From: a virus
Strand: one strand, 5' to 3'
IMG/VR virus record: IMGVR_UViG_3300042445_001170
Coordinates: 1-64,000 of that record
DNA length: 64,000 bases
In this document: in pieces, positions 16,922-46,597 of the stretch
Numbering within the stretch: the first letter of the stretch is position 1
Layout of the letters: each line of letters begins with the position of its first letter
Position numbers and translations under genes: made by a program
Notes under the pieces: model-generated
The model's database searches: none
Seen by the model: only the letters and a program-made list of their open reading frames with translations
Told to the model about the DNA's origin: nothing

Positions 16922-17214
16922 TTAGATCCCCCTATTAATAATTAATAATTAATTATATCACGAATAGATTCTGGTCGACTGCTATTTCAGATTTCATAAA
17001 ATGTTAATATATTTTTATTTTGTACGATACACACCTAAAAAGAAATCGGACATTTAGGATAGACCGCACATAATGAGCGTGTGCCTATGGGCAATGTGAT
17101 GCACTTCACAAAGTATTTTTTCAATTTGTCCCTAATGTCCGAATTTGGATTTGATAAATGTCAGACCCCCATGCTACGCTTATACTATAACAAACAAACG
17201 AAAGGAGTCAGACA

Positions 17215-17391
17215 ATGACTCAACTAAACGAAACACTATTCAGCACTATCGTGCATGACTTCCATAATGGCGGAGTCAAGTCCTCTTATGGACTATCTGC
17301 CTATGACCGCAAGGCTATGGTCAAGTACCTAATCTCTAGCCCTGCTTGCTACTGTATCGAGTGCGTGTGTGAGGTAACTCACACCGCATAA
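17215..17391 (+). CDS. Small hypothetical protein (58 aa)
   Basis: AACGAAAGGAG leader then ATG. Confidence 0.7.
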   Translation: MTQLNETLFSTIVHDFHNGGVKSSYGLSAYDRKAMVKYLISSPACYCIECVCEVTHTA

Positions 17392-17468
17392 GGTGCGTGT
17401 CGCCTTGATAATGTCAGACCTATACCCTATAATTCCATTATAACCAACTAACGAAAGAAGAACAGACA

Positions 17469-17621
17469 ATGACAATCACATACTCACTATGGGACGGCGC
17501 TCAACTACTAGGCGTGGACTTCACCGCTAATAGCGCAGACGAAATGAATAAGGCAGTAGCAGAACTACAAAAGGTTTCTAAGAATGTAGTAGCACACATG
17601 AGAAAGGTAACACAGAACTAA
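17469..17621 (+). CDS. Small hypothetical protein (50 aa)
   Basis: Follows promoter 17412 and the leader; TAATG coupling. Confidence 0.7.
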   Translation: MTITYSLWDGAQLLGVDFTANSADEMNKAVAELQKVSKNVVAHMRKVTQN

Positions 17622-17803
17622 TGTCATACGCATACTCATACCAAACTAATAGCGTGTCTAAGTGGGACACCATTCAGAGCGATGTCGCAGACGCATACGC
17701 CTACCTTGATGAAGAAGAAACAGAGCAACCCCCTGCTGATGATTTCGATGATGTAGACGATGAAGAATTAGCAAAAGTATTCGCACTAAGTTGGGATAAC
17801 TAA
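17621..17803 (+). CDS. Acidic hypothetical protein
   Basis: ORF track; coupled to the previous gene. Confidence 0.7.
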   Translation: MSYAYSYQTNSVSKWDTIQSDVADAYAYLDEEETEQPPADDFDDVDDEELAKVFALSWDN

Positions 17804-17805
17804 TA

Positions 17806-17943
17806 ATGGAACTACTACTAAATGACTACGGGCTAGAACTAGATACCTACATGGGCTCTCTATACCTACCTTGGCATACTATCGCTTTATCTACCGCCCT
17901 ACTAATCGCCTATAAGATTTATAAGAGAAAGAAGAGTAAGTAA
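17806..17943 (+). CDS. Small membrane protein (45 aa)
   Basis: MELLLNDY...; TM segment plus basic tail. Confidence 0.6.
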   Translation: MELLLNDYGLELDTYMGSLYLPWHTIALSTALLIAYKIYKRKKSK

Positions 17944-18053
17944 TGACTACTAATCGCATACTAACTACGCTAGTCCAACTAGGTATCGGTATCCCCGCCC
18001 TACTTATGCTCCGTCTAGTAATTCGTGATCTAATTCATAATAAATTAGACTAG
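17943..18053 (+). CDS. Small membrane peptide (36 aa)
   Basis: TAATG coupling; hydrophobic. Confidence 0.55.
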   Translation: MTTNRILTTLVQLGIGIPALLMLRLVIRDLIHNKLD

Positions 18054-18256
18054 CGCTACGGCGTGTCGGCTTGACAATGTCAAGCTGGCCCGCAAAGGCA
18101 CGGGGTCGGGCGTGTCGTTACGGATACGCTAAAAAACCCCTTGAATTTTGTGAGGTTTATCACAAAAAAGATTTATCAAAACACGGCGTGTCGTGTGGTA
18201 AATGTCAGTCCCCTCTGCTATAATTCCTACTATAACAACAACGAAAGGTCGTTAAA

Positions 18257-18385
18257 ATGACACTTGAAGAATACAAGGCGCACGTTGAGGCGCAACGCAA
18301 GGCAAGCCTTCTAAAGGCTATCGCAACAATGTCAGAGGCTAATGCTACAATGTCCTCTCTATTCAATACTAAGGAGGCTAACTAA
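18257..18385 (+). CDS. Small hypothetical protein (42 aa)
   Basis: AACGAAAGG leader; coupled. Confidence 0.65.
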   Translation: MTLEEYKAHVEAQRKASLLKAIATMSEANATMSSLFNTKEAN

Positions 18386-18507
18386 TGGGTTATGTAGAAA
18401 TCTTTCGCCTAGATGATGAGGGCGCTGGCTGGGTTGATTTATCAGAAGCAACACCAGATGAATTGTTTAACATTGAATTAGGATTACTAAATGAGGGGGC
18501 TCTCTAA
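18385..18507 (+). CDS. Small acidic protein (40 aa)
   Basis: AAGGAGG RBS; TAATG coupling. Confidence 0.65.
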   Translation: MGYVEIFRLDDEGAGWVDLSEATPDELFNIELGLLNEGAL

Positions 18508-18704
18508 TGGAGAAAACACAATTTGAAAAAGATTTAGAAATCAAGGAAAGTTTTATTGATTTACTTAATGACATTTATCCAGAGGTAAAAATTGGATACT
18601 CTACTTTTACACCCGCCGAAATTCTAGAGTGTTGCGACCCTGTTGCTTTTGCAATCGGATTAGTTGAGCACGAGGATTACCTAGCAGAAATGGAAAACGA
18701 ATAA
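18507..18704 (+). CDS. Hypothetical protein
   Basis: ORF track; coupled. Confidence 0.7.
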   Translation: MEKTQFEKDLEIKESFIDLLNDIYPEVKIGYSTFTPAEILECCDPVAFAIGLVEHEDYLAEMENE

Positions 18705-18805
18705 TGGATAAAGATATTTTTGGATTTGCCGAGGCAATTAGAATTGACGATCTTAGCGATGAAGATTTTAAAATTGTCGAATTAATTTTTAAAGATTTTA
18801 AGTAG
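18704..18805 (+). CDS. Small hypothetical protein (33 aa)
   Basis: TAATG coupling. Confidence 0.55.
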   Translation: MDKDIFGFAEAIRIDDLSDEDFKIVELIFKDFK

Positions 18806-19058
18806 CTAGCGGCGTGTCGACTTGACAAAGTTGATGCGCCCCCATAAGCACGGGGTCGGGCGTGTCGTTACGACATTGTTATAAAATCCCGTGAAATTTG
18901 CGGCGTGTCGATTTGACAGACAAATCGGACATTTCGATGTGATTAGTATCACACGGCTTGAGCGTCTCAGTATTTGGAATTACTGGCTAGTAATGTGAAA
19001 ATGTCAGTAGGCTCGTGTATAATTCCATACATAACAACAAACGAAAGAAGGTCTGCCA

Positions 19059-19265
19059 ATGGCTACCAAACTCTATACAATCGAAAGCCTACTTGTAGGA
19101 AAAAACTATCGCTCAAACTCTCGCCACTTTTCAGGCGAAATTGTTTCTGCTAAACCTCGTCCAGCAATTTGGTATGGCGATAAAACCGAAGCCTTTTTAA
19201 TTGAGGTTCGTACAGGCGGTCTGAGAAATAAATTCGCAACAATCGCAGTGAAGGTTGGTGAATAA
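19059..19265 (+). CDS. Hypothetical protein
   Basis: Promoter 19002 plus leader. Confidence 0.7.
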   Translation: MATKLYTIESLLVGKNYRSNSRHFSGEIVSAKPRPAIWYGDKTEAFLIEVRTGGLRNKFATIAVKVGE

Positions 19266-19442
19266 ATGAAAAGTTTTTCATCTGATGTAATTGACCATAA
19301 TGAATTTTATCTAATTCACGATTTATTATTTTTCTGTTGTGATGAGCAACAATTCCGCCACTCTTGTAAAGCACACGGCGAAATGATGGGTTGCTACTAT
19401 TGCGAATTTGATTACTCAAAAGATTGCGAGTGTGAGGAATAA
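19266..19442 (+). CDS. Small Cys-rich protein (58 aa)
   Basis: CC, CKAH, CYYC, CEC; abuts its neighbours. Confidence 0.6.
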   Translation: MKSFSSDVIDHNEFYLIHDLLFFCCDEQQFRHSCKAHGEMMGCYYCEFDYSKDCECEE

Positions 19443-19579
19443 TGATAAACTCAGTAATGCGTATAGATTGTTCAGAGTGTAATTCTACTGGACTAATCTT
19501 TTTTGGCGATAACAATAATTTTGATGTCGAAACTTGCGATTGCGATTTTGGCAAAGAGCAAGATTTATTTTTTAACTAA
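19442..19579 (+). CDS. Small Zn-binding protein (45 aa)
   Basis: CSECNSTG...CDC. Confidence 0.6.
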   Translation: MINSVMRIDCSECNSTGLIFFGDNNNFDVETCDCDFGKEQDLFFN

Positions 19580-19594
19580 CGAAAGGGAAAACCT

Positions 19595-19801
19595 ATGTAC
19601 CAAATAACTGTTGCCTACGATAGCAAGCCTATCCATTTCAACAAGAACTATACAGACGCTCTTGAAGCGTTTACCGCATTTCTTTCATTTACTGATTGGG
19701 GATTTGCTAACGAATACTCAACTGTAAATCTAATGACCCCAACTGGGAAAATGTATACTAAATTATTTTATCGTGAAGGTCGAAAGGTTGTAACAAAATG
19801 A
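19595..19801 (+). CDS. Hypothetical protein
   Basis: AACGAAAGGG leader. Confidence 0.7.
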   Translation: MYQITVAYDSKPIHFNKNYTDALEAFTAFLSFTDWGFANEYSTVNLMTPTGKMYTKLFYREGRKVVTK

Positions 19802-19989
19802 TGACTCGTAAAGACTATGTCGCAACGGCAGAAATTCTAAAGTATGCCAGCAACAAAACTCACCCCGCTGTATTTTCTAAAATTGTAAATGATTTTGCTG
19901 AAATGTTTGCGGTTGATAATCCGAGATTTGATGTAAAACGATTTCATGAGGCGAGTGGATACAATGTTCCTAACTTCAGTTCAAGATAA
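19798..19989 (+). CDS. Hypothetical protein (DNPRFD..RF motif)
   Basis: ORF track; coupled. Confidence 0.7.
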   Translation: MMTRKDYVATAEILKYASNKTHPAVFSKIVNDFAEMFAVDNPRFDVKRFHEASGYNVPNFSSR

Positions 19990-20095
19990 AGTAAAGCGAA
20001 TTCAGGAATTGCGTCGCAGTAATGCGGCGCAACCTGTTCGCAATAAGAAAAAATATAATCGCAAGATCAAACATAAGAATAAATATTCAGAGTAG
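19964..20095 (+). CDS. Small very basic protein (43 aa)
   Basis: ...LRRSNAAQPVRNKKKYNRKIKHK. Confidence 0.55.
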   Translation: MFLTSVQDKVKRIQELRRSNAAQPVRNKKKYNRKIKHKNKYSE

Positions 20096-20244
20096 CGCAT
20101 AACTATGCAGCTGCCCTCTCTTTTGTGGGGGGTCCAGTGTGAATTACGTCACATTTTAAAAATACCCTGAAAATTCGGCGTGTCGATTTTGATCTGTCAG
20201 TCCATTCTGCTATACTTGCCACTTAACCAACGAAAGGCTAACTA

Positions 20245-20454
20245 ATGGATAATTTTACTGTTGCTTGCTTGAACTATGAAATTTGTGGCGCTCAAGAAAC
20301 TTTTGATAACGATGCAGAATATGAAATTTATGGCGATGACTATATTTGTGCTGAATGCTATGCATCTGAGGAAATGGAATTCTTTGAAACTATAGGCTGG
20401 TCTGATAGCGATGCTCTTGCTTCCGCTGGCCACGGTATGGATGAGGATTACTAA
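20245..20454 (+). CDS. Acidic Cys-containing hypothetical protein
   Basis: Promoter 20195 plus leader. Confidence 0.7.
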   Translation: MDNFTVACLNYEICGAQETFDNDAEYEIYGDDYICAECYASEEMEFFETIGWSDSDALASAGHGMDEDY

Positions 20455-20485
20455 GATGTCAGTGGTCCCCGTTATAATTACCCCT

Positions 20486-21205
20486 ATGAAACTGAAACGT
20501 TCTAATGATAGAAAGGTGGCCAACCTTGTCACAAAAAATGGAAAGCAAGCCGCAATTGCCAATACTTTCGGATTACCTGCTGGAAAAGCTTACTCGTGCC
20601 CTGGTGCCACTAGTATTTGTGAAAGCGTTTGCTATGCAGGAAAACTCGAAAAGTTATTCCCTGGAGTAAAAACTAATCTGCTTCATAACTGGGCCCTGCT
20701 TAAAGACGCCGATAGCGAAACTATGGTCTCTCTTCTAAATGAAATGATTGTAGAATTCAAGGCAGATTGTGTTAAGAAAGACGCTCCTCAATTATTCCGT
20801 ATCCACTGGGACGGGGATTTCTTTAGCGATACTTATGCATATGCCTGGAAGACTGTTATCAACACACACGCTGATATTCAATTTTGGGTCTACACACGTG
20901 TAAAGTCTGCAGCGCTTATTCTTAAGGATATATCTAATCTGTCACTGTATTATTCTACGGATGATGATAATAAAGATATTGCTCATGATTTAAAACTAAC
21001 TAATGGCATTCGTCTTGCCTACCTAGGTAAAACATTTGCTGCAACCGAAGACACAATGAAGGAGTTAACTGGCAAGCCTGGTGCTAAGTGTCCTGAGAAT
21101 AATAAAAGCATTCCTCTTATCTCTAGCAATGGGTCCGCCTGCGTATCGTGTGGATTGTGCGTATACGGTAAAGCGGATATTAGATTTTCTGCGAGTAAAA
21201 AATAA
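20486..21205 (+). CDS. Gp88-like Fe-S/radical-SAM-like phage protein
   Basis: CPGATSICESVCYA, FRIHWDGDF, FWVYTR; leaderless ATG 7 nt after the -10 at 20473. Confidence 0.7.
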   Translation: MKLKRSNDRKVANLVTKNGKQAAIANTFGLPAGKAYSCPGATSICESVCYAGKLEKLFPGVKTNLLHNWALLKDADSETMVSLLNEMIVEFKADCVKKDAPQLFRIHWDGDFFSDTYAYAWKTVINTHADIQFWVYTRVKSAALILKDISNLSLYYSTDDDNKDIAHDLKLTNGIRLAYLGKTFAATEDTMKELTGKPGAKCPENNKSIPLISSNGSACVSCGLCVYGKADIRFSASKK

Positions 21206-21354
21206 TGATAGACATTCTCGGATCCTTGATCGGAATCATATTAATTTGTTTTTTGTGCTCACCAATTGTGTTGGCCGTGTACATGTGGAATGGGGCCAAG
21301 ATAGATAGCGATGGTGACGGGAAAGAAGATTTGCCTAATCGTTGGGATAGGTAA
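21205..21354 (+). CDS. Small membrane protein (49 aa)
   Basis: TAATG coupling; TM segment then DSDGDGKED. Confidence 0.5.
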   Translation: MIDILGSLIGIILICFLCSPIVLAVYMWNGAKIDSDGDGKEDLPNRWDR

Positions 21355-21404
21355 CGGCGTGTCGAGTTGACAATTGTCAGCTCGGCCCCCAATATTGTGG
21401 GGGT

Positions 21405-21434
21405 TTTTCCACAGGCTTACGAGAGTTATCCACA
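21405..21434 (+). promoter_or_regulatory. DnaA-box pair
   Basis: TTTTCCACA at 21405, TTATCCACA at 21426. Confidence 0.6.
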
Positions 21435-21547
21435 GACCCTGAAAATTTGTGATTAATCTCACAAAAGCTGCGACACGCCGAGAATGGATTAGGTAATGTC
21501 AGTGGCCTATGCTAAAATACTCTTATACCAACAACGAAAGGTAAGTT

Positions 21548-21772
21548 ATGTCTAATCTAATGAAAGTTCCACACACAGTTGAGTTCGAGGCAGTTATTGA
21601 CTTGGATAAAATTCCTTCACACTTGCTTCCTGCGCTAGTTTCTATGGATGCTGATTCTATTGAAAAAATGTGCAAAGGCGCAACACTACACGCACTTGGA
21701 ATGTCAAATGTAATTCCACTTGCTAATGAAAATAACACTTGGGCTGAAGTAACAATTAAGGGGAATAACTAA
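21548..21772 (+). CDS. Hypothetical protein
   Basis: Promoter 21497 plus leader. Confidence 0.7.
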   Translation: MSNLMKVPHTVEFEAVIDLDKIPSHLLPALVSMDADSIEKMCKGATLHALGMSNVIPLANENNTWAEVTIKGNN

Positions 21773-22038
21773 TGGGATACACAACAGCAGTAAGTCTATC
21801 TGAAGAATTAGATTTAGAAGTAGCACTAGGCTATCACTTACAAGGCAATCATTACCCGCCCGTTCCCCTCTCAATGGTCGAGCCTTGCATCGAGGCTATT
21901 GACGCTTATTGGGAAGAAGATTTTGATCGAGCAATCGAAATGCCTGAAGGCGTATCTTATAAAGGTCAAACTCACGCACCTGCTTGGGCTATTGTCGAGC
22001 AGCACCACTTGGACGCTTGGCTACCTGAAAGTGACTAA
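21772..22038 (+). CDS. Hypothetical protein
   Basis: ORF track; coupled. Confidence 0.7.
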   Translation: MGYTTAVSLSEELDLEVALGYHLQGNHYPPVPLSMVEPCIEAIDAYWEEDFDRAIEMPEGVSYKGQTHAPAWAIVEQHHLDAWLPESD

Positions 22039-22134
22039 GGTCACACAATAACTTTCTCAAATACTGAGATAGGGCTAGACTAATGTCAGACCCCAATGCT
22101 ATACTACCAACCTAACAAAGAAAAGAGGCAATAA

Positions 22135-22317
22135 ATGACAATAGATAATCAACTCTATCAGGTCGGAGATTTATTCACCACCCTGAAGTCAAAGAAAACT
22201 GGTGTGATTAAGGAAATCCACCCACAGGCATCTGGCTCGGTGCGTGTGCTACTAGAAATGCCAACGAAGGAAACTCGTTGGACTTCGGTATCCGCTAAGA
22301 CACTACTAGGCGCATAA
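22135..22317 (+). CDS. Small SH3/KOW-like hypothetical protein
   Basis: YQVGDL...GVIKEI beta pattern; promoter 22084. Confidence 0.65.
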   Translation: MTIDNQLYQVGDLFTTLKSKKTGVIKEIHPQASGSVRVLLEMPTKETRWTSVSAKTLLGA

Positions 22318-22452
22318 CCTAAATCGAAACAGGGACAGTTTAGGAAAGTATCTAGTCCAATGTCGTAAGTAAGAACTTTCCTCCCTTCGGGGAAATGTCA
22401 GACCCCCCTGCTATACTATCCATAACAACAACCAACCAACGAAAGGCACACA

Positions 22453-22869
22453 ATGTCAAGAGCAATCACAGTAAAGGTGGCAACACCAAAGGTAATTAAG
22501 GCACTAGAAACTCGTCTAGCAACACTAGAAAAAGACTATGCTTCACAAGAAGCAAACGAAGCAAAGTTCCAAAAGAAGCACGAAGCGTGGAAAAAGGAAA
22601 TTGGTAAGTGGGCTATCGCTAACTTCTCAAAGTCCGAGAACCTTCGCACAAACTATCGTTCTTGGAACAAAACGCTAAATGTTGATTTTGACATCATTGT
22701 AAGTGAGAAGGAGTTTCCGCTAGAGCCTGAGAAGGACTACGAAACAATCCATCAGCACACTTATCGTGAGATGAAAGAGGACATCACAAATGCCCTAACA
22801 ATTCTCAAGATGACAGATGAGGAAACAGTAAATGCTTCTACAATGAAGCAGATTGCTAAGTATCTCTAA
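22453..22869 (+). CDS. Coiled-coil hypothetical protein
   Basis: Promoter 22396 plus leader. Confidence 0.75.
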   Translation: MSRAITVKVATPKVIKALETRLATLEKDYASQEANEAKFQKKHEAWKKEIGKWAIANFSKSENLRTNYRSWNKTLNVDFDIIVSEKEFPLEPEKDYETIHQHTYREMKEDITNALTILKMTDEETVNASTMKQIAKYL

Positions 22870-22933
22870 ATAATTTGGGGGGCAGAACTAAAGTCCTGAA
22901 CCCAATCGTTCTCGCATAACGCTAAATTGCGAA

Positions 22934-22960
22934 CGACCTGAGTAAGTCGCCAAACTGCTC
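22934..22960 (+). ncRNA. Small H-type pseudoknot element, copy 1
   Basis: CGAC-CTGAGTAA-GTCG-CCAAAC-TGCTC. Confidence 0.55.
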
Positions 22961-22992
22961 TCCTTCGGGAAACTACTAACAAAGGTAATACA

Positions 22993-23253
22993 ATGGCAAA
23001 TCGTTTCAGAGTAGAAATCTACGATGCAAACAAACTTAATGACATCACGATTTATTCGGATCAAGGTGTTGATAAAGAATACTTAACTGAATTAGTATTC
23101 AGCAACATCAGAAACTTTAGCGGAAAAATTAACGCTTATGTTTTTGATAACGTGAAGAAAAAGAAAACAACTGCAATGTTTCTTGATGAGAGCACAGTTG
23201 AATTTAATAAGAACTTAATTAAAAATGCGACAAAGGTAGAGGTGGGGATTTAA
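22993..23253 (+). CDS. Hypothetical protein
   Basis: ORF track; AAAGG RBS. Confidence 0.7.
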   Translation: MANRFRVEIYDANKLNDITIYSDQGVDKEYLTELVFSNIRNFSGKINAYVFDNVKKKKTTAMFLDESTVEFNKNLIKNATKVEVGI

Positions 23254-23282
23254 TCCCCAGCTCGGCCCCCGCTTTTGAGGGG

Positions 23283-23314
23283 TTATCCACAGCGTTACGA
23301 CAACCTGTGGAAAA
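23283..23314. promoter_or_regulatory. Inverted DnaA-box pair
   Basis: TTATCCACA at 23283, TGTGGAAAA at 23306. Confidence 0.6.
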
Positions 23315-23431
23315 CCCTGAAAATTTGTGAGAATGATCACACCGCACAATTCGGACAAATGACTATCTAATCTAGACAATGTCAGTGCCACCTGTTATAC
23401 TTACAACTAATCAAACGAAAGGTAAAAAATA

Positions 23432-24436
23432 ATGGCTCATAATCTAGAAATGGAAAACGGCGAAGTTGCTTTCGCTCTCCGTGGCGCACCTGCTTGGCAC
23501 AATCTAGCAAATCGCATCTTCACACAAGATGAAGAAGTAACTACACAATCTATGCTTGAAGAAGCAAAGTTGGCTAATTGGAATGTTCGTCTATCTCCAA
23601 TAACTGAGCACATTCCAGAATCTTGGAATGATGTTTCTACTGCATCTCTTGTCATTCGTGATAACCCATTCAATGGCGGAACTGATGTTCTTGCAACTGT
23701 CGGTAAGCGTTACAAGCCTGTGCAGAATGAAGAACTATTTGCATTCGCTGATGCAATTCACGATGCCAATGCTGATTGCCGTTGGGAATCTGCTGGCTCA
23801 CTCAAAAAGGGCAAAGTTGTTTTCGGTACTGTGGACATTCCTCGCACAATGGTGCTTGACCCACAAGGCGCTAACGATGAAACTAAACTCTATCTAATTG
23901 TTTGGACATCTCATGACGGGTCTGTTGCCGTTCAGGCAGCCGTTACACCTGTTCGTGTTGTTTGCCAAAACACACTTAACCTTGCAATGAAGAATGCTAA
24001 GCAATCTTTCAAGATTCGCCATACGCAATCTGTTGAAGGTCGCATTCAGGTTGCTCGTGAAACTCTTGGGCTTGCTCTTGGTTATTTCGATGAGTTTGAA
24101 GTTGAAGCAAAGGCGCTTTACTCTCAGGCAATTACTGATGCTGAATTCTCTAAGTTGATTCAGACAATTTATCCTAAGCCTGAAAAAGATGCTAAGGGTG
24201 CAATCAAGAAGTGGGAAAACAAAGTTGTCCTGCTTGACGATTTGTATCACAACTCACCAACTAATGCTAACATCAAGGGAACAAAGTGGGGCGCATTCAA
24301 TGCACTTACTGAGCGCCTTGATTACTATCGTTCAGGTCGTGGCAATGGTGAAACTCTTATGGCGGGTGCATCAGGATTTGACCCTGTTCTAACTGCTGAG
24401 AAAAACAAAATCAAGAAATTGGTTTCTGCTTTCTAA
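23432..24436 (+). CDS. DUF932 family (phage/plasmid TIGR03299-like) protein
   Basis: MAHNL...AWH, YKPVQN, SHDGS...TPVRVVCQNTL, IRHT, GTKWGAFNALTE. Confidence 0.88.
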   Translation: MAHNLEMENGEVAFALRGAPAWHNLANRIFTQDEEVTTQSMLEEAKLANWNVRLSPITEHIPESWNDVSTASLVIRDNPFNGGTDVLATVGKRYKPVQNEELFAFADAIHDANADCRWESAGSLKKGKVVFGTVDIPRTMVLDPQGANDETKLYLIVWTSHDGSVAVQAAVTPVRVVCQNTLNLAMKNAKQSFKIRHTQSVEGRIQVARETLGLALGYFDEFEVEAKALYSQAITDAEFSKLIQTIYPKPEKDAKGAIKKWENKVVLLDDLYHNSPTNANIKGTKWGAFNALTERLDYYRSGRGNGETLMAGASGFDPVLTAEKNKIKKLVSAF

Positions 24437-24442
24437 TTAAAA

Positions 24443-24470
24443 AAATCCTGAGCATGATTTAAAACTGCTC
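24443..24470 (+). ncRNA. Small H-type pseudoknot element, copy 2
   Basis: AAATC-CTGAGCAT-GATTT-AAAAC-TGCTC. Confidence 0.55.
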
Positions 24471-24482
24471 ACATTTTTTATT

Positions 24483-24556
24483 GGTCTGTTAGCTCAGTTG
24501 GTTAGAGCGCTACCCTGTCACGGTAGAGGTCGACGGTTCAAGTCCGTTACAGATCG
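24483..24556 (+). tRNA. tRNA-Asp(GUC)
   Basis: Cloverleaf; anticodon arm CTACC-CTGTCAC-GGTAG. Confidence 0.95.
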
Positions 24557-24681
24557 CAAAATGCCCCCAATAGTAAGGGAGCAAAAAGTGTGTTACGAGT
24601 CACAAAACAATTCCCTGGAATCTATTGTATATGTCAGTGGGTTCGTGTACAATACTCCTATAACCTAACGAAAGAGGTAAA

Positions 24682-25110
24682 ATGTCACGAGAACGCAGAA
24701 CGGGATACACAGGCAATGTATTAGATGGCGAGAAGCTTGCCAAAATTGCTAATGACATCTACAACATTCAGTATACTGGTGGTGCAAGTAATTGCACGGT
24801 AGACAACCTATTACTAATTGAACTAGAAGAAAAAAATGTATTTGGGGATCCAAAGTATGCAGTAATATGCTCAGAAGGTGTTGGCTGGGAACAAGATGAA
24901 TATGGTTGCCTAGAAATACCTACAAACATTGGCGCTATGGGTCTATGGAATGGAAGAGTCTTTATCTCAGTAGAGACTGTTAAGTCTTGTCAGACTATAT
25001 TTACCAAGGAAGTATCAGAATACATTAGAACCTTTGGGTCCCGCCTGGATTCAAATTGCTCCCTATGGCAGTCCAAAATGTCAGTGGCACCTGCTACAAT
25101 ACTCGCATGA
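24682..25110 (+). CDS. Hypothetical protein
   Basis: Promoter 24632 plus leader. Confidence 0.7.
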   Translation: MSRERRTGYTGNVLDGEKLAKIANDIYNIQYTGGASNCTVDNLLLIELEEKNVFGDPKYAVICSEGVGWEQDEYGCLEIPTNIGAMGLWNGRVFISVETVKSCQTIFTKEVSEYIRTFGSRLDSNCSLWQSKMSVAPATILA

Positions 25111-25763
25111 CCAACGAACTAGTATCAAGTAAATATACATTTGTCTGCGACCCAGATGAATGTGATTGTCTAATTGAATTAACATCATCTGACGGGTTTG
25201 GATTCCCATCAGGTGTGACAGAACTCACATGTCCATGTGGCCGTAAGACTACCTTATTGTCAGTGGAGCATGCTACAATTGCACCAACAACAACGAAAGA
25301 GGAACAAATGGAAACAACAACACCTGCAGTAACCGTCCCTGATACATACAACTCAAATTTATTGGTTACCTATAAAGTAATCCGTGGCTATTCAGATGCA
25401 GAATATGCAACTGATAAGGTTGCATCTATTGAGTGGGACTTACATAATGGACGTCAATCACAAAAGCGTGTAACCACTCTCCTATCTCAAATTGATGCCG
25501 TCAAAGATATCATTACTGAATCATATGCTGATTCAAGCGACCAAGAAACACTTCAAGCAATTGCTGAAGCGCTAGACATTTCTCTAACACGAGAAGTTGA
25601 GTGGTCTGCAACAATTGAAGTTAGCGGAACATTAACAATTGATTTACTTGAAAGCACAGTTGATGATGTCGAACAAGAAATCTACGACAATCTTTATGTT
25701 GACTCACAAAACGGTCAGATTGAAATCGTTGACACTGAAGTTACGAATGTGCGTGAAAACTAA
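25107..25763 (+). CDS. Hypothetical protein: Zn-ribbon N-terminus, internal second start at 25308
   Basis: Leaderless ATG after the -10 at 25095; internal promoter 25258 plus leader give an in-frame ATG at 25308. Confidence 0.7.
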   Translation: MTNELVSSKYTFVCDPDECDCLIELTSSDGFGFPSGVTELTCPCGRKTTLLSVEHATIAPTTTKEEQMETTTPAVTVPDTYNSNLLVTYKVIRGYSDAEYATDKVASIEWDLHNGRQSQKRVTTLLSQIDAVKDIITESYADSSDQETLQAIAEALDISLTREVEWSATIEVSGTLTIDLLESTVDDVEQEIYDNLYVDSQNGQIEIVDTEVTNVREN

Positions 25764-25975
25764 TGTACTTTGAACTTACCGCTCCCGATAGGTTGTCCAT
25801 GGAGATGGCCTATTGGGATGCACAAATCACAGGGCTTGACCCTGAAGCAATGTCACCGTTGACTTTCAACATCGGAACTGGTAGTATTGAGAAAGTAAGT
25901 CGTATTCGTGATAAGTATAACTTGACAGAGTCCTACTGGTCAGATAAAGAAGCGACAGGATACAAGGAGAGATAA
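25763..25975 (+). CDS. Hypothetical protein
   Basis: Coupled ORF. Confidence 0.7.
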   Translation: MYFELTAPDRLSMEMAYWDAQITGLDPEAMSPLTFNIGTGSIEKVSRIRDKYNLTESYWSDKEATGYKER

Positions 25976-26121
25976 TGTCAGATTATAAAGATGGTTTTAC
26001 AGACGGGTATAAGTTTGCTCGTGAAGAACTAATGGAAAAGTTAGCAGAGATTGATATTGCTGACATTGACTCTTGGATTCTTGACCGTCTTTCAGAGATG
26101 ATTGAAGGTAATCAACTGTGA
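25975..26121 (+). CDS. Small acidic protein (48 aa)
   Basis: AGGAG RBS; MSDYKDGF... Confidence 0.6.
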   Translation: MSDYKDGFTDGYKFAREELMEKLAEIDIADIDSWILDRLSEMIEGNQL

Positions 26122-26309
26122 TGGCTGAGTGGCTTAAGTGTGATCAATGTGCAGCACAAGCTATGTGGGAAGCAAAGAAAGACGCTATGTCTCTTTATTT
26201 CTGCGGACATCATAAGAATGCACAGGGCGAGTCTCTTGTGGACTGGGCCCATGAAATGGTACAATTACTCAACTACGAAAAAGAACACCAACTAGAAACG
26301 GCGGAATAA
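26118..26309 (+). CDS. Small Zn-binding protein (CDQC...FCGHH)
   Basis: Motif pattern seen in small actinobacterial and actinophage proteins. Confidence 0.7.
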   Translation: MMAEWLKCDQCAAQAMWEAKKDAMSLYFCGHHKNAQGESLVDWAHEMVQLLNYEKEHQLETAE

Positions 26310-26310
26310 A

Positions 26311-26679
26311 ATGGGCGACAGAGCAAACTTTGGATTTAAAGATTCCAAGGACAATATTGTATTTCTATATGGACACTGGGCGGGGCACCGAATGCTAGAG
26401 AACCTAGCGGATGCTGTAGGCGCTGCAGAGCCACGTTGGCAGGACGAATCATATGCAACACGTATTGCTATCTCACAATTAATTAAAGACGAATGGGCTA
26501 GCGAAACAGGGTGGGGCATTACAGTAAATGAATTAGCAGACAATGAGCACAAGGTCCCTATTATCGATTGGAAGAACCAAACGTTTACATTAATGGAAGA
26601 GGACCTGAAGACGGTTGTATTTAGTACAACACTGGATGCATTTGTAACTAAGTATTCCAGTCAACCAAGTATGGTATAA
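26311..26679 (+). CDS. Hypothetical protein (MGDRAN...LYGHWAG family)
   Basis: ORF track. Confidence 0.75.
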   Translation: MGDRANFGFKDSKDNIVFLYGHWAGHRMLENLADAVGAAEPRWQDESYATRIAISQLIKDEWASETGWGITVNELADNEHKVPIIDWKNQTFTLMEEDLKTVVFSTTLDAFVTKYSSQPSMV

Positions 26680-26684
26680 TTAAT

Positions 26685-26836
26685 CCAGGACCTATGGTCT
26701 TGGTTTTAATACAGAAATGAAATGGTGCGTCTAACTAGTCTACGGGCCAGGCGCTAAGTAAAGCGGTTTATTTCTTTCGTTGGAAATCTAGCAGCCATAT
26801 TCATAACCCCCCAGCTAATCCTGGGGGGTATTCTTT
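26685..26836 (+). ncRNA. Candidate sRNA with loop complementary to the island mRNA leaders
   Basis: TGGTATAAT at 26672-26680, 5' hairpin, long closing stem, loop TTTCGTTG, terminator. Confidence 0.65.
26806..26836 (+). terminator. Intrinsic terminator
   Basis: ACCCCCCAG-CTAATC-CTGGGGGGT followed by ATTCTTT. Confidence 0.8.
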
Positions 26837-26917
26837 TGCCCACAAAAGATATGAGGGTATCAGATCTCTTTTAAGAAGTCAATATAAAATACCCTGAAAA
26901 TTTGTGATCTTGACCAC

Positions 26918-26970
26918 AAACCTAACAATAGATTAATTAAACCTAACAAGCTTTCGATCAAACCTAACAA
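26918..26970 (+). repeat. AAACCTAACAA x3 with a 21-bp period
   Basis: Copies at 26918, 26939, 26960. Confidence 0.9.
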
Positions 26971-27053
26971 TGTGGTCCAATTCACACAGCATATGTATTC
27001 CATTTGTCAGTGGTCTAGTCTATAATTAGAACATATCAACGAAAGGATATAAA

Positions 27054-27797
27054 ATGCCAAACTGGGTATTCAACGGATTAACTATTGAGGGTAATCCTGA
27101 GCAAGTTAAGTCTTTAATTACACAGATGAATAAGCCATTTATTTATTCAATTACTCCTGTTGGAGATTTAGCATATGATGTCAAGCAGACTAAGTATGTT
27201 AATCCTATCTTTGCTTTTCATAATATCTATTCATATAGAGATGCTGGTATTACTGATGAACAGTATCATTCTCAACCGCCCCATAATCCTGATACAACAA
27301 TGAAGGATTGGTTTAAGTTTGAGACCAATGATTGGTACAACTTCAATGTCCGTGAGTGGGGCACTAAATGGGATGTAGCCGTATCTGAGGATGATAAGTA
27401 TCCTGATACTACTATTGAGGAAGCCGAAAATGGCGAGAACTATGTAGTCCACTATAACTTTAATACTGCTTGGTCTCGTCCAATGAATGCTTTAATTAAA
27501 CTATCATCTCAATACCCAACATTACTATTTACTTTATCATATGAGGAAGAAACAGGTTGGGGTGGGGAATGTGAGTTCCTTCGTGGAGAAGTTATCTCAG
27601 AATCAGAATATGACAACATGTGCCGTGATTGTGATGCAACAGACCAAATGGAATACTGCGAAAATGACTGTGGTGAAATCTGTGGCAACTGCAACTGGCT
27701 TGGTGAGGCTGACCTAGAGGCTGTAGCAAAATGTCAGACCCATGCTATATACTTGGAAACTAAAGTACCCGAATATCGAAAGGCGGAGGTAAAATGA
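27054..27797 (+). CDS. DUF1281/YubB ferredoxin-like family protein
   Basis: MPNWVFN, DWYNFNVREWGTKWD, FNTAWS motifs; Cys-rich tail. Confidence 0.75.
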   Translation: MPNWVFNGLTIEGNPEQVKSLITQMNKPFIYSITPVGDLAYDVKQTKYVNPIFAFHNIYSYRDAGITDEQYHSQPPHNPDTTMKDWFKFETNDWYNFNVREWGTKWDVAVSEDDKYPDTTIEEAENGENYVVHYNFNTAWSRPMNALIKLSSQYPTLLFTLSYEEETGWGGECEFLRGEVISESEYDNMCRDCDATDQMEYCENDCGEICGNCNWLGEADLEAVAKCQTHAIYLETKVPEYRKAEVK

Positions 27798-28024
27798 GTT
27801 TTCTAGAGAACGAAAACCAAATGGTAATAGATGCAACATATTCAGAGATTGGCGAAATGCTAGTTGAAGATTGGGTTAATTCTAATTTAGATGAAGGTCA
27901 GATGTATGCAGATTTTAGATTTGCAGAAATGTCAGATAGCAATTATCTAAAGGGCAGATTTAATCAGTTCTATGATTTAAATGAAGGCGACCAGTATTAC
28001 CTAGAATGGAATGAGGAACTATGA
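27794..28024 (+). CDS. Acidic hypothetical protein
   Basis: GGAGG RBS; ATGA overlap. Confidence 0.7.
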   Translation: MSFLENENQMVIDATYSEIGEMLVEDWVNSNLDEGQMYADFRFAEMSDSNYLKGRFNQFYDLNEGDQYYLEWNEEL

Positions 28025-28200
28025 TGTTAGGTTATTCTAAAACAGATCTAGATGAAATGATTAACTCGGTCCATGATGCTAAATTGTTTTACATTAGAAA
28101 TTCAGATGTTGAGCAAGTTGACCAAGACCCTTTAGTTGAAGGCTTATTAAAAACAAATGACTTTCTTCAAGGTCTATGGGCAGAAGGGTATTTTGACTAA
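28021..28200 (+). CDS. Hypothetical protein (59 aa)
   Basis: MMLGYS...LQGLWAEGYFD; coupled. Confidence 0.65.
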   Translation: MMLGYSKTDLDEMINSVHDAKLFYIRNSDVEQVDQDPLVEGLLKTNDFLQGLWAEGYFD

Positions 28201-28310
28201 TGCATAAACATCATTGGGAATGTGATGATGTACCAGGATACTTTTATTGTGCCTGCGGAGTAATGGCTATTCATAATAGAGAAACGGGAGAGAAGGATAT
28301 TCATGACTAA
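28200..28310 (+). CDS. Small His/Cys peptide (36 aa)
   Basis: MHKHHWEC...CACG; coupled. Confidence 0.5.
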   Translation: MHKHHWECDDVPGYFYCACGVMAIHNRETGEKDIHD

Positions 28311-28512
28311 ATCATCAGTGTTCCTAGAATACATGAAACTTCATTTGATCAGTCTTAACCAGGATTGGGAAGATGCTAAAAATGGAGCACCTTTGAAGGA
28401 TGATGAATATGACCCTTCAGATGATTACTTTGAAGGAGCAATTGCAGCAACAGAACATTTATTGTCAGTGGCAACTGATATAATGAACTCTACTAACGAA
28501 AGGTATGAATAA
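28303..28512 (+). CDS. Hypothetical protein
   Basis: ORF track. Confidence 0.7.
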   Translation: MTKSSVFLEYMKLHLISLNQDWEDAKNGAPLKDDEYDPSDDYFEGAIAATEHLLSVATDIMNSTNERYE

Positions 28513-46296: not shown

Positions 46297-46597
46297 GCTT
46301 TTCCTTTATTCTTTTCCATACTTCTTTTGTCTTATGTGCATTTCTAACTTTGTCATGAGACCCAGAATTTAAATAAACTCCACCCCATACTCCATAATCA
46401 CTATTTGATACCCCGCTGTCATAGCATAACTTAATGACTGGGCACGATAGGCATGCCTCGTCTATGCTTTTTGCTATATTGACATCTGCTTCATACTTAT
46501 CAAAAAAAAGATTAGTGTCCATTCCCAAGCAAAGGGCTAGCTTGTACCAATCTAAATTATCTTCATCTACATTTAAACTATTTAAAATATTTGACAT
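46286..46597 (-). CDS. whiB: WhiB-family Fe-S transcription factor
   Basis: W...ALC...FF...CLSCPV...C...GVWGG; start moved to MSNIL. Confidence 0.9.
   Translation of the reverse strand: MSNILNSLNVDEDNLDWYKLALCLGMDTNLFFDKYEADVNIAKSIDEACLSCPVIKLCYDSGVSNSDYGVWGGVYLNSGSHDKVRNAHKTKEVWKRIKEKHVY

Follow-up and report, generated by a model that had tools for sequence, protein, structure and literature searches.

Crp/GlxR-type boxes in helical register with PafBC-type promoters in the small-gene island of a lake phage

Whether a phage can tie the promoters of its presumed early genes to a global regulator of its host is the question raised by a locus in the viral record IMGVR_UViG_3300042445_001170, the 112,167-bp genome of an uncultured phage with 38.9% guanine plus cytosine (GC), the first 64 kb of which are the stretch of DNA analyzed here and referred to as the window. 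There, an island of small open reading frames (ORFs) carries upstream of most of its promoters the inverted repeat TGTGA-N6-TCACA, which is the consensus of the Crp/GlxR regulators, while the promoters themselves resemble those served by PafBC in mycobacteria. As judged from sequence and its conservation, we consider it on balance probable that the Crp protein of the host binds these boxes and co-activates the PafBC-type promoters in a class-I-like manner.

Boxes and their register with the promoters

With at most one mismatch allowed, the box occurs 12 times in the window, whereas 100 dinucleotide-preserving shuffles of the window gave a mean of 2.70 (standard deviation 1.59, largest value 7) and none of them reached 12. 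Across all 112,167 bp there are 8 perfect and 4 one-mismatch boxes, every one within 17095-26986; two-mismatch sites number 40 and are spread over the genome as background. An initial annotation of the window had listed seven perfect and four one-mismatch sites and had assigned them to the CRP family. The sites are real and the assignment holds, the motif being the 16-bp inverted repeat of that family with half-sites that are nearly invariant in relatives, yet the tally was one short, a perfect site at 25214-25229 having been missed. The genome-wide site count that the same annotation had proposed as a check thus comes to 12 in 112 kb, confined to about 10 kb of the island.

Every box stands 34-102 bp upstream of a promoter of the form TGTCAG-N10-TAnnnT, and none of the 12 overlaps a -10 or a TGTCAG element. 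The promoters belong to a family, aaTGTCAG-N10-TAnnnT, with about 17 members from 17159 to 28463, all on the + strand. Downstream of each come a AACGAAAGG leader and a small ORF; 16 promoters of the island have the 10-nt gap and one (27732) has a gap of 11 nt. Canonical sigma-70-type -35/-10 matches are not enriched in the island (36 compared to 32.7 expected), and a minority of the phage promoters also have a -35-like TTGATA or TAGACA. The consensus determined for PafBC of M. smegmatis is tGTCgg(N10)tA(N3)T, in which the -26 element spans -28 to -23 and a -35 is lacking, and PafBC slots in between sigma region 4 and the DNA (PMC8635444). The phage promoters show this -26-element pattern, and by their sequence we class them as putative PafBC-type promoters.

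In order to describe the spacing, we define the offset as the distance from the start of a box to the next TGTCAG and call it on the ladder when it lies within 1 bp of a step. The eleven offsets given in the initial annotation were reproduced and the missed site adds one of 44 bp, such that nine of the twelve (Table 1) fall on 34/44/54/64. By itself the window provides modestly significant evidence of phasing (Rayleigh R=0.56 at a period of 10.4 bp, p about 0.02). For a broader view we turned to the DUF932 gene (23432-24436) and compared its surroundings in 80 IMG/VR loci, which were drawn from many lake metagenomes and are 92-100% identical in the DUF932 protein. Boxes and promoters are present in all 80, and the offsets peak at 34, 43-45, 53-55, 63-65, 74-75 and 86, with minor classes at 49-50, 57-58 and 61-62, the last consisting mostly of the distal boxes of tandem pairs. 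The ladder 34/44/54/64/75/86 therefore has five steps with a mean of about 10.4 bp, the helical repeat of DNA. Because many of the modules are homologous, proximal spacers were merged by single linkage with thresholds set against a shuffled baseline. Under the stricter merging 15 of 20 clusters are on the ladder (Rayleigh p about 3e-4), and at the next threshold 28 of 34 (p about 4e-8). The phasing to the promoters that had been proposed is thus real and is conserved across divergent relatives.

Ascertainment was taken out of the comparison by anchoring orthologous promoters on the downstream coding sequence rather than on the box. A box with at most one mismatch is retained upstream of the promoters orthologous to 23380 (80/80), 25258 (59/62), 21497 (27/27), 22084 (61/62) and 27005 (26/27), and the orthologues of the promoters that have no box in the window (20457, 22396, 27732, 28463) likewise have none. 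Where offsets differ between orthologous promoters they do so by about 10 bp (64/54/44, 54/34, 43/53). Within the orthologous sets variability is 0-0.04 in the half-sites, compared to 0.19-0.36 in the N6 spacer and 0.17-0.28 in the flanks, which shows that the half-sites are under purifying selection.

The same arrangement is found in more distant phages. A 110-kb phage contig (G403:C31; 35.5% GC), which sits in a metagenome-assembled genome (MAG) labelled 'cyanobacterium' and has a ribonucleotide reductase (RNR) 79% identical to that of the phage, has offsets of 64, 43, 64, 43 and 74. A scan of IMG/VR for a perfect box followed by N{18,48}-TGTCAG-N10-TAnnnT, a pattern that fixes the offset range at 34-64 and leaves the phase within it free, returned at least 119 stretches, of which the first 80 were analyzed. 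Sixteen of these have less than 10% nucleotide similarity to the phage, and still 29 of their 40 offsets are on the ladder. When 12 of the 16 were compared at the protein level, 10 had early proteins 35-76% identical to those of the window and two (L205, L219) had no match to window proteins. As this grammar recurs in the 110-kb contig and in the divergent IMG/VR loci, the box, its partner promoter and their register are conserved beyond the point at which the surrounding DNA can be aligned.

Phasing that is conserved in this way is the sequence signature of class-I-like action, which depends on the face of the helix. Both sequence features expected of promoters that depend on a class I activator were found, namely the 28 of 34 modules on the ladder and the jumps of about 10 bp between orthologues. 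In the mechanism that we propose, the boxes would be high-affinity operators for a dimer of a host regulator of the Crp/GlxR family, placed whole helical turns upstream of a promoter in which TGTCAG occupies about -28 to -23 and TAnnnT forms the -10. With whole-turn spacing, bound Crp would always lie on the same side of the helix as seen from RNA polymerase, and it would most likely serve as a class-I-like co-activator, through contact with the alpha C-terminal domain and/or DNA bending, for most transcription units of the island. The first wave of phage transcription would in this manner be coupled to the activity of a global regulator of the host and, probably, to the physiological condition of the cell.

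The register also bears on two other ways in which a bound host protein might act. One is that the boxes are mainly a decoy that titrates host Crp, derepressing or shutting down its regulon, with any effect on phage promoters being incidental. With its 12 near-consensus boxes in 10 kb, the island roughly equals the count for an entire 1.4-Mb genome of the host type (12-16, mostly chance), CRP of M. tuberculosis binds most strongly at perfect sites (PMC4117774), and replication would multiply the sites. A decoy, however, needs neither a fixed phase nor one box per promoter and would be expected to spread over the genome, yet the phase is conserved, offsets shift by about 10 bp and the boxes lie only upstream of one class of promoter. 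We regard a decoy as improbable, and titration, which the initial annotation had offered next to co-activation, falls short as a main role because it leaves the phasing and the layout of one box per promoter unexplained.

The other is that Crp or a different host protein binds but acts negatively or architecturally, by bending or looping the DNA or by insulating units against read-through. Some boxes on the opposite face (49, 57/58) are stably kept, tandem boxes 23-28 bp apart occur, and a terminator-like hairpin or DnaA-box-like repeats are often found just before a box, all of which would suit such a role. Against it, most proximal boxes lie on one face and upstream of the core, a position that goes with activation for CRP of E. 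coli and M. tuberculosis (PMC4117774), and the -10 and TGTCAG elements are left free. We give little credence to this as a general account, although bound Crp may have a negative or architectural role at the off-phase boxes.

Candidate proteins for the box

Domain searches of the phage revealed no cyclic-nucleotide-binding (cNMP-binding) domain, no HTH_Crp_2 and no class III cyclase, and a Pfam scan of 20 small-island ORFs of at least 58 aa showed no helix-turn-helix (HTH) or other DNA-binding family. In Actinomycetia, by comparison, HTH_Crp_2 scores above its cut-off in 148 of 151 genomes (this set and the set of 401 used below include the five unpublished genomes G007, G022, G027, G030 and G036, which enter into nothing else reported here). 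As proxies for the host we used streamlined Actinomycetia genomes of 1.0-1.5 Mb, several of them single-contig, with 47-48% GC around crp; they may not be the hosts of this phage. The GC content of 'Ca. Planktophila' is 46.5% (PMC10202952), and in size and GC the proxies appear to be Planktophila-like. Each of 15 proxies examined has one or two HTH_Crp_2 matches, and in the nine in which the frame was read it encodes a Crp of 227-247 aa. The one from G085 (L116) matches M. tuberculosis CRP with E=7e-77 and GlxR with E=1e-72. A Crp that reads such boxes is expected to have an R-E-x-x-x-K/R recognition helix; in all nine this helix is the same as in M. tuberculosis CRP, and the FGELS...PRT(S/A) nucleotide cassette is intact. 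In M. tuberculosis, enrichment of CRP in chromatin immunoprecipitation (ChIP) drops as mismatches to the consensus grow, perfect sites being bound best; the recorded upstream sites include positions from -55.5 to -106.5, and binding upstream is associated with activation (PMC4117774). Given a phage without Crp, proxies with a canonical Crp and the ChIP trend in M. tuberculosis, a dimer of host Crp is the most economical candidate for the protein that binds the box.

As to the promoters, no WYL domain was found in a search of the phage; the proxy genomes contain an adjacent pair of WYL proteins (PafBC-like) and have the promoter motif in a TGTCAGTG flavor. TGTCRGTG-N8-TANNNT sites number 5-9 per proxy genome compared to 0-1 in the control, some of them followed by an SOS-box-like TCGAAC-N4-GTTCG, and one of the proxy sites, TGTCAGTGGCACCTGCTACCTT, has only 2 differences in 22 positions when set against the promoter that the phage has at 25079.

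Several observations weigh against co-activation by host Crp. Perfect boxes are not enriched in the Planktophila-like proxies (0, 0, 0, 1 and 0, compared to 0, 0, 1, 0 and 1 in the control), nor are boxes with at most one mismatch (12 and 16, compared to 10 and 8). Twenty native PafBC-type promoters of the proxies have no Crp box upstream, and the composite module of box and promoter occurs in 0 of 401 Actinomycetia genomes, which leaves Crp at such promoters without cellular precedent; the arrangement accordingly looks like a phage invention and not like a copied host promoter. The GC content of the phage is well under the local GC of the proxies. Neither a class III (PF00211) nor a CYTH (PF01928) cyclase could be recognized in six proxies (G032, G060, G085, G107, G127, G147), even though the nucleotide cassette of their Crp is intact, so that 'cAMP-Crp', the form of the regulator named in the initial annotation, is unsupported as stated, the phage itself having no class III cyclase either. 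Three of the 12 window boxes are off the ladder (49, 57 and 102), and the box at 49 is stably so, this offset being kept in 22 orthologues. Lastly, counted from the inferred start sites, the ladder is 3 or 7 bp off the class I positions given for E. coli, and the canonical -61.5/-72.5/-82.5/-92.5 are not matched.

This last point depends on the landmark from which the distance is taken. In the textbook class I geometry, E. coli CRP at these four positions lies 29, 40, 50 and 60 bp from the center of the -35 hexamer. With TGTCAG taken as -28 to -23 the phage boxes would be centered at -54.5, -64.5, -74.5, -84.5, -95.5 and -106.5, and from box center to TGTCAG center the distances are 29/39/49/59/70/81 bp. 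The register would thus fit class I only when measured from the TGTCAG element in place of the -35 hexamer. The ladder may preserve the spacing of class I with respect to the site that sigma region 4, together with PafBC, occupies, and it would leave room for the alpha C-terminal domain.

The absence of the module from the cellular genomes sampled is also what would be expected if a dimeric DNA-binding protein of an unrecognized family, encoded by the phage or delivered with the virion, activates or shuts off the island promoters, the likeness to the Crp consensus being coincidence or mimicry. Consistent with this are the lack of enrichment of the consensus box in genomes of the host type, the native PafBC-type promoters that have no box, the restriction of the composite module to phage contigs, and the fact that most island ORFs are without known function. 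It is, however, unlikely that chance would reproduce the consensus of the universal regulator of the host phylum exactly in its half-site of 5 bp as well as in its spacing of 6 bp, and the searches revealed neither a DNA-binding family among 20 small-island ORFs nor a Crp-family gene in the phage. Should the island be early, its promoters would moreover have to fire ahead of any phage protein, and repressors usually overlap the core promoter, unlike boxes that lie in helical register between -54 and -106. We consider a phage protein rather unlikely, and the host Crp dimer remains our preferred binder.

Taken one step further, host Crp at these boxes would suggest that nearly every early unit in this large family of lytic freshwater actinophages has a two-input promoter, composed of a PafBC-type -26 element and an in-register consensus Crp box, a design seen in none of the cellular genomes examined. 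We put this forward tentatively, as it is the less probable part of our proposal. If it is true, the phage reads a sensor of DNA damage and single-stranded DNA and a global metabolic regulator at the moment of injection, and Crp is able to co-activate sigma-adapted (PafBC) transcription complexes.

Other features of the phage and its island

The phage itself is, by its gene content, an actinophage: it has a WhiB-family gene (Table 1), the actinophage families GP88 and DUF932, and a terminase that is 63% identical to those of Streptomyces BE-cluster phages, with more matches in Gordonia, Rhodococcus and Tsukamurella phages. A megablast search with the island returned no match among GenBank phages. 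The phage belongs to a group of large phages, very abundant and little studied, whose probable hosts are streamlined actinobacteria of lakes. That the island is early is presumed from its many small ORFs and from the promoter that each unit has of its own.

RNR was tried as a marker of the host and discarded, as its matches were only phage contigs in MAGs of unrelated phyla and carried no host signal. Contigs of related phages (L091-L113) are binned in MAGs labelled Bacteroidia, Saccharibacteria, Brevundimonas, cyanobacterium, Aquiluna and others; they look like binning contaminants, which could mislead host prediction.

Table 1. Positions of the boxes, their partner promoters and the WhiB-family gene (offset: start of the box to TGTCAG of the promoter named)
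Feature	Position	Strand	Sequence	Offset in bp (promoter)	Remark
Box 1	17095..17110		perfect	64 (17159)	
Box 2	17368..17383		perfect	44 (17412)	within 3' end of ORF 17215-17391
Box 3	18149..18164		perfect	54 (18203)	
Box 4	18938..18953		perfect	64 (19002)	
Box 5	20138..20153		perfect	57 (20195)	off ladder
Box 6	21448..21463		perfect	49 (21497)	half-turn, off ladder
Box 7	22030..22045		one mismatch (AGTGA)	54 (22084)	overlaps stop of ORF 21772-22038
Box 8	23326..23341		perfect	54 (23380)	promoter of DUF932 gene
Box 9	24589..24604		one mismatch (TGTGT)	43 (24632)	directly past tRNA-Asp
Box 10	25214..25229		perfect	44 (25258)	within coding frame
Box 11	26903..26918		one mismatch (CCACA)	102 (27005)	distal of tandem pair
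Box 12	26971..26986		one mismatch (TGTGG)	34 (27005)	proximal of tandem pair
Promoter, box 1	17159..17180	+	TGTCAG-N10-TAnnnT		PafBC-type geometry
Promoter, box 2	17412..17433	+	TGTCAG-N10-TAnnnT		TTGATA at -35 position as well
Promoter, box 3	18203..18224	+			
Promoter, box 4	19002..19023	+			
Promoter, box 5	20195..20216	+			
Promoter, box 6	21497..21518	+			
Promoter, box 7	22084..22105	+			
Promoter, box 8	23380..23401	+			
Promoter, box 9	24632..24653	+			
Promoter, box 10	25258..25279	+			
Promoter, boxes 11 and 12	27005..27026	+			
WhiB-family gene	46376-46549	minus			

A number of further sequence elements accompany the boxes. GGCGTGTCG or its complement is present in nine copies, all in the 3.4 kb between 18060 and 21480 of the window and nowhere else in the 112-kb genome. 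It often lies between box and TGTCAG, shows strong conservation among orthologous modules, as does GCGACACGCC at 21471, and may be a second protein-binding element. CCCTGRAAW has seven copies, at 20165, 21437, 23315, 24613, 26892, 30097 and 30154: three stand immediately 5' of a box (CCCTGAAAATT-TGTGA), another two lie between box and promoter, and the two at 30.1 kb have no box nearby. It behaves as a separate movable element. TCGGACA/TGTCCGA at 17046, 17136, 18925 and 23351 is found between box and promoter in modules with offsets of 54 and 64; it is kept in the close relatives and, at about 4460 and 7275, in the relative with the 79% identical RNR (L124), and in view of this conservation it may be a further component of the module.

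The DnaA-box consensus TTATCCACA has four copies in the island or at its end (21426, 23283, 30008, 30020), some of them inside CCACAG...CTGTGG inverted repeats directly upstream of boxes. Between boxes 11 and 12, at 26919-26970, three direct repeats of AACCTAACAA shift the distal box from the offset of 61-62 seen in relatives to 102. The sequence AACGAAAG(G) precedes 13 start codons of the island (17197-28495), with a single further copy elsewhere in the genome, and is a common 5' leader and Shine-Dalgarno region. A tRNA-Asp at 24483-24557, within the island, separates two transcription units.

In the small Planktophila-like genomes, most of the TGTCRGTG-N8-TANNNT promoters lie within about 50 kb (443000-490000 of contig C1 in G127; 456-510 kb in G085, G107, G060 and G147), and this clustering suggests a DNA-damage or defense island.

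Relation to known systems

Should host Crp indeed drive these promoters, the island would show clearly, at the level of sequence, how a virulent phage has hard-wired its presumed first-wave genes to a global regulator of its host. The natural series of spacings, which climbs from 34 bp to 86 bp by about 10.4 bp at a time, is suited to testing whether Crp can cooperate with PafBC-type sigma-adaptation complexes, and the cyclase searches raise the question of what activates Crp in ultra-small actinobacteria that apparently have no known adenylate cyclases. We came across no published account of Crp sites in an actinophage. By terminase, the closest relative in culture is Streptomyces phage Gilson, which shows no enrichment of boxes (5 sites compared to 3 in the control), and the boxes are thus not a trait of its cluster.

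The E. coli lac-type class I promoters share with the phage promoters the 16-bp TGTGA-N6-TCACA dyad upstream of the core, the expected use of one helical face, and similar distances to the upstream element (29/40/50/60 compared to 29/39/49/59). They differ in that the phage promoters have TGTCAG at about -26 instead of a -35 hexamer, which moves all positions about 7 bp nearer to the start site, and in their setting, an actinobacterial phage with 11 such promoters in a row. The PafBC 'sigma adaptation' promoters of mycobacteria have exactly the 22-nt core geometry of the phage promoters (PMC8635444). The cellular ones are without a described upstream co-activator site, whereas most of those in the island have a Crp-type box and some a -35-like TTGATA or TAGACA. 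The Crp/GlxR regulons of actinobacteria (M. tuberculosis CRP Rv3676, PDB 3d0s/3mzh; C. glutamicum GlxR, PDB 4cyd/3r6s) use the same consensus, yet the cellular sites are mostly degenerate and scattered, while in the phage 8 of 12 are perfect and all are packed into 10 kb.

A viral precedent is offered by the T4-like cyanophages, for which 1-16 predicted sites for NtcA, also a CRP-family regulator, are reported (Sullivan et al. 2010, PMC3037559). The regulator, the motif (GTA-N8-TAC) and the host phylum are different there; NtcA sites are typically class II and replace the -35. In the part consulted, neither a helical ladder nor a comparable conservation analysis is reported (PMC3037559). Compared with these systems, four points are new here: consensus-strength sites are densely packed, natural variation brings out a helical ladder, the promoters paired with the boxes are of the PafBC type, and the setting is a large and abundant family of lake actinophages.

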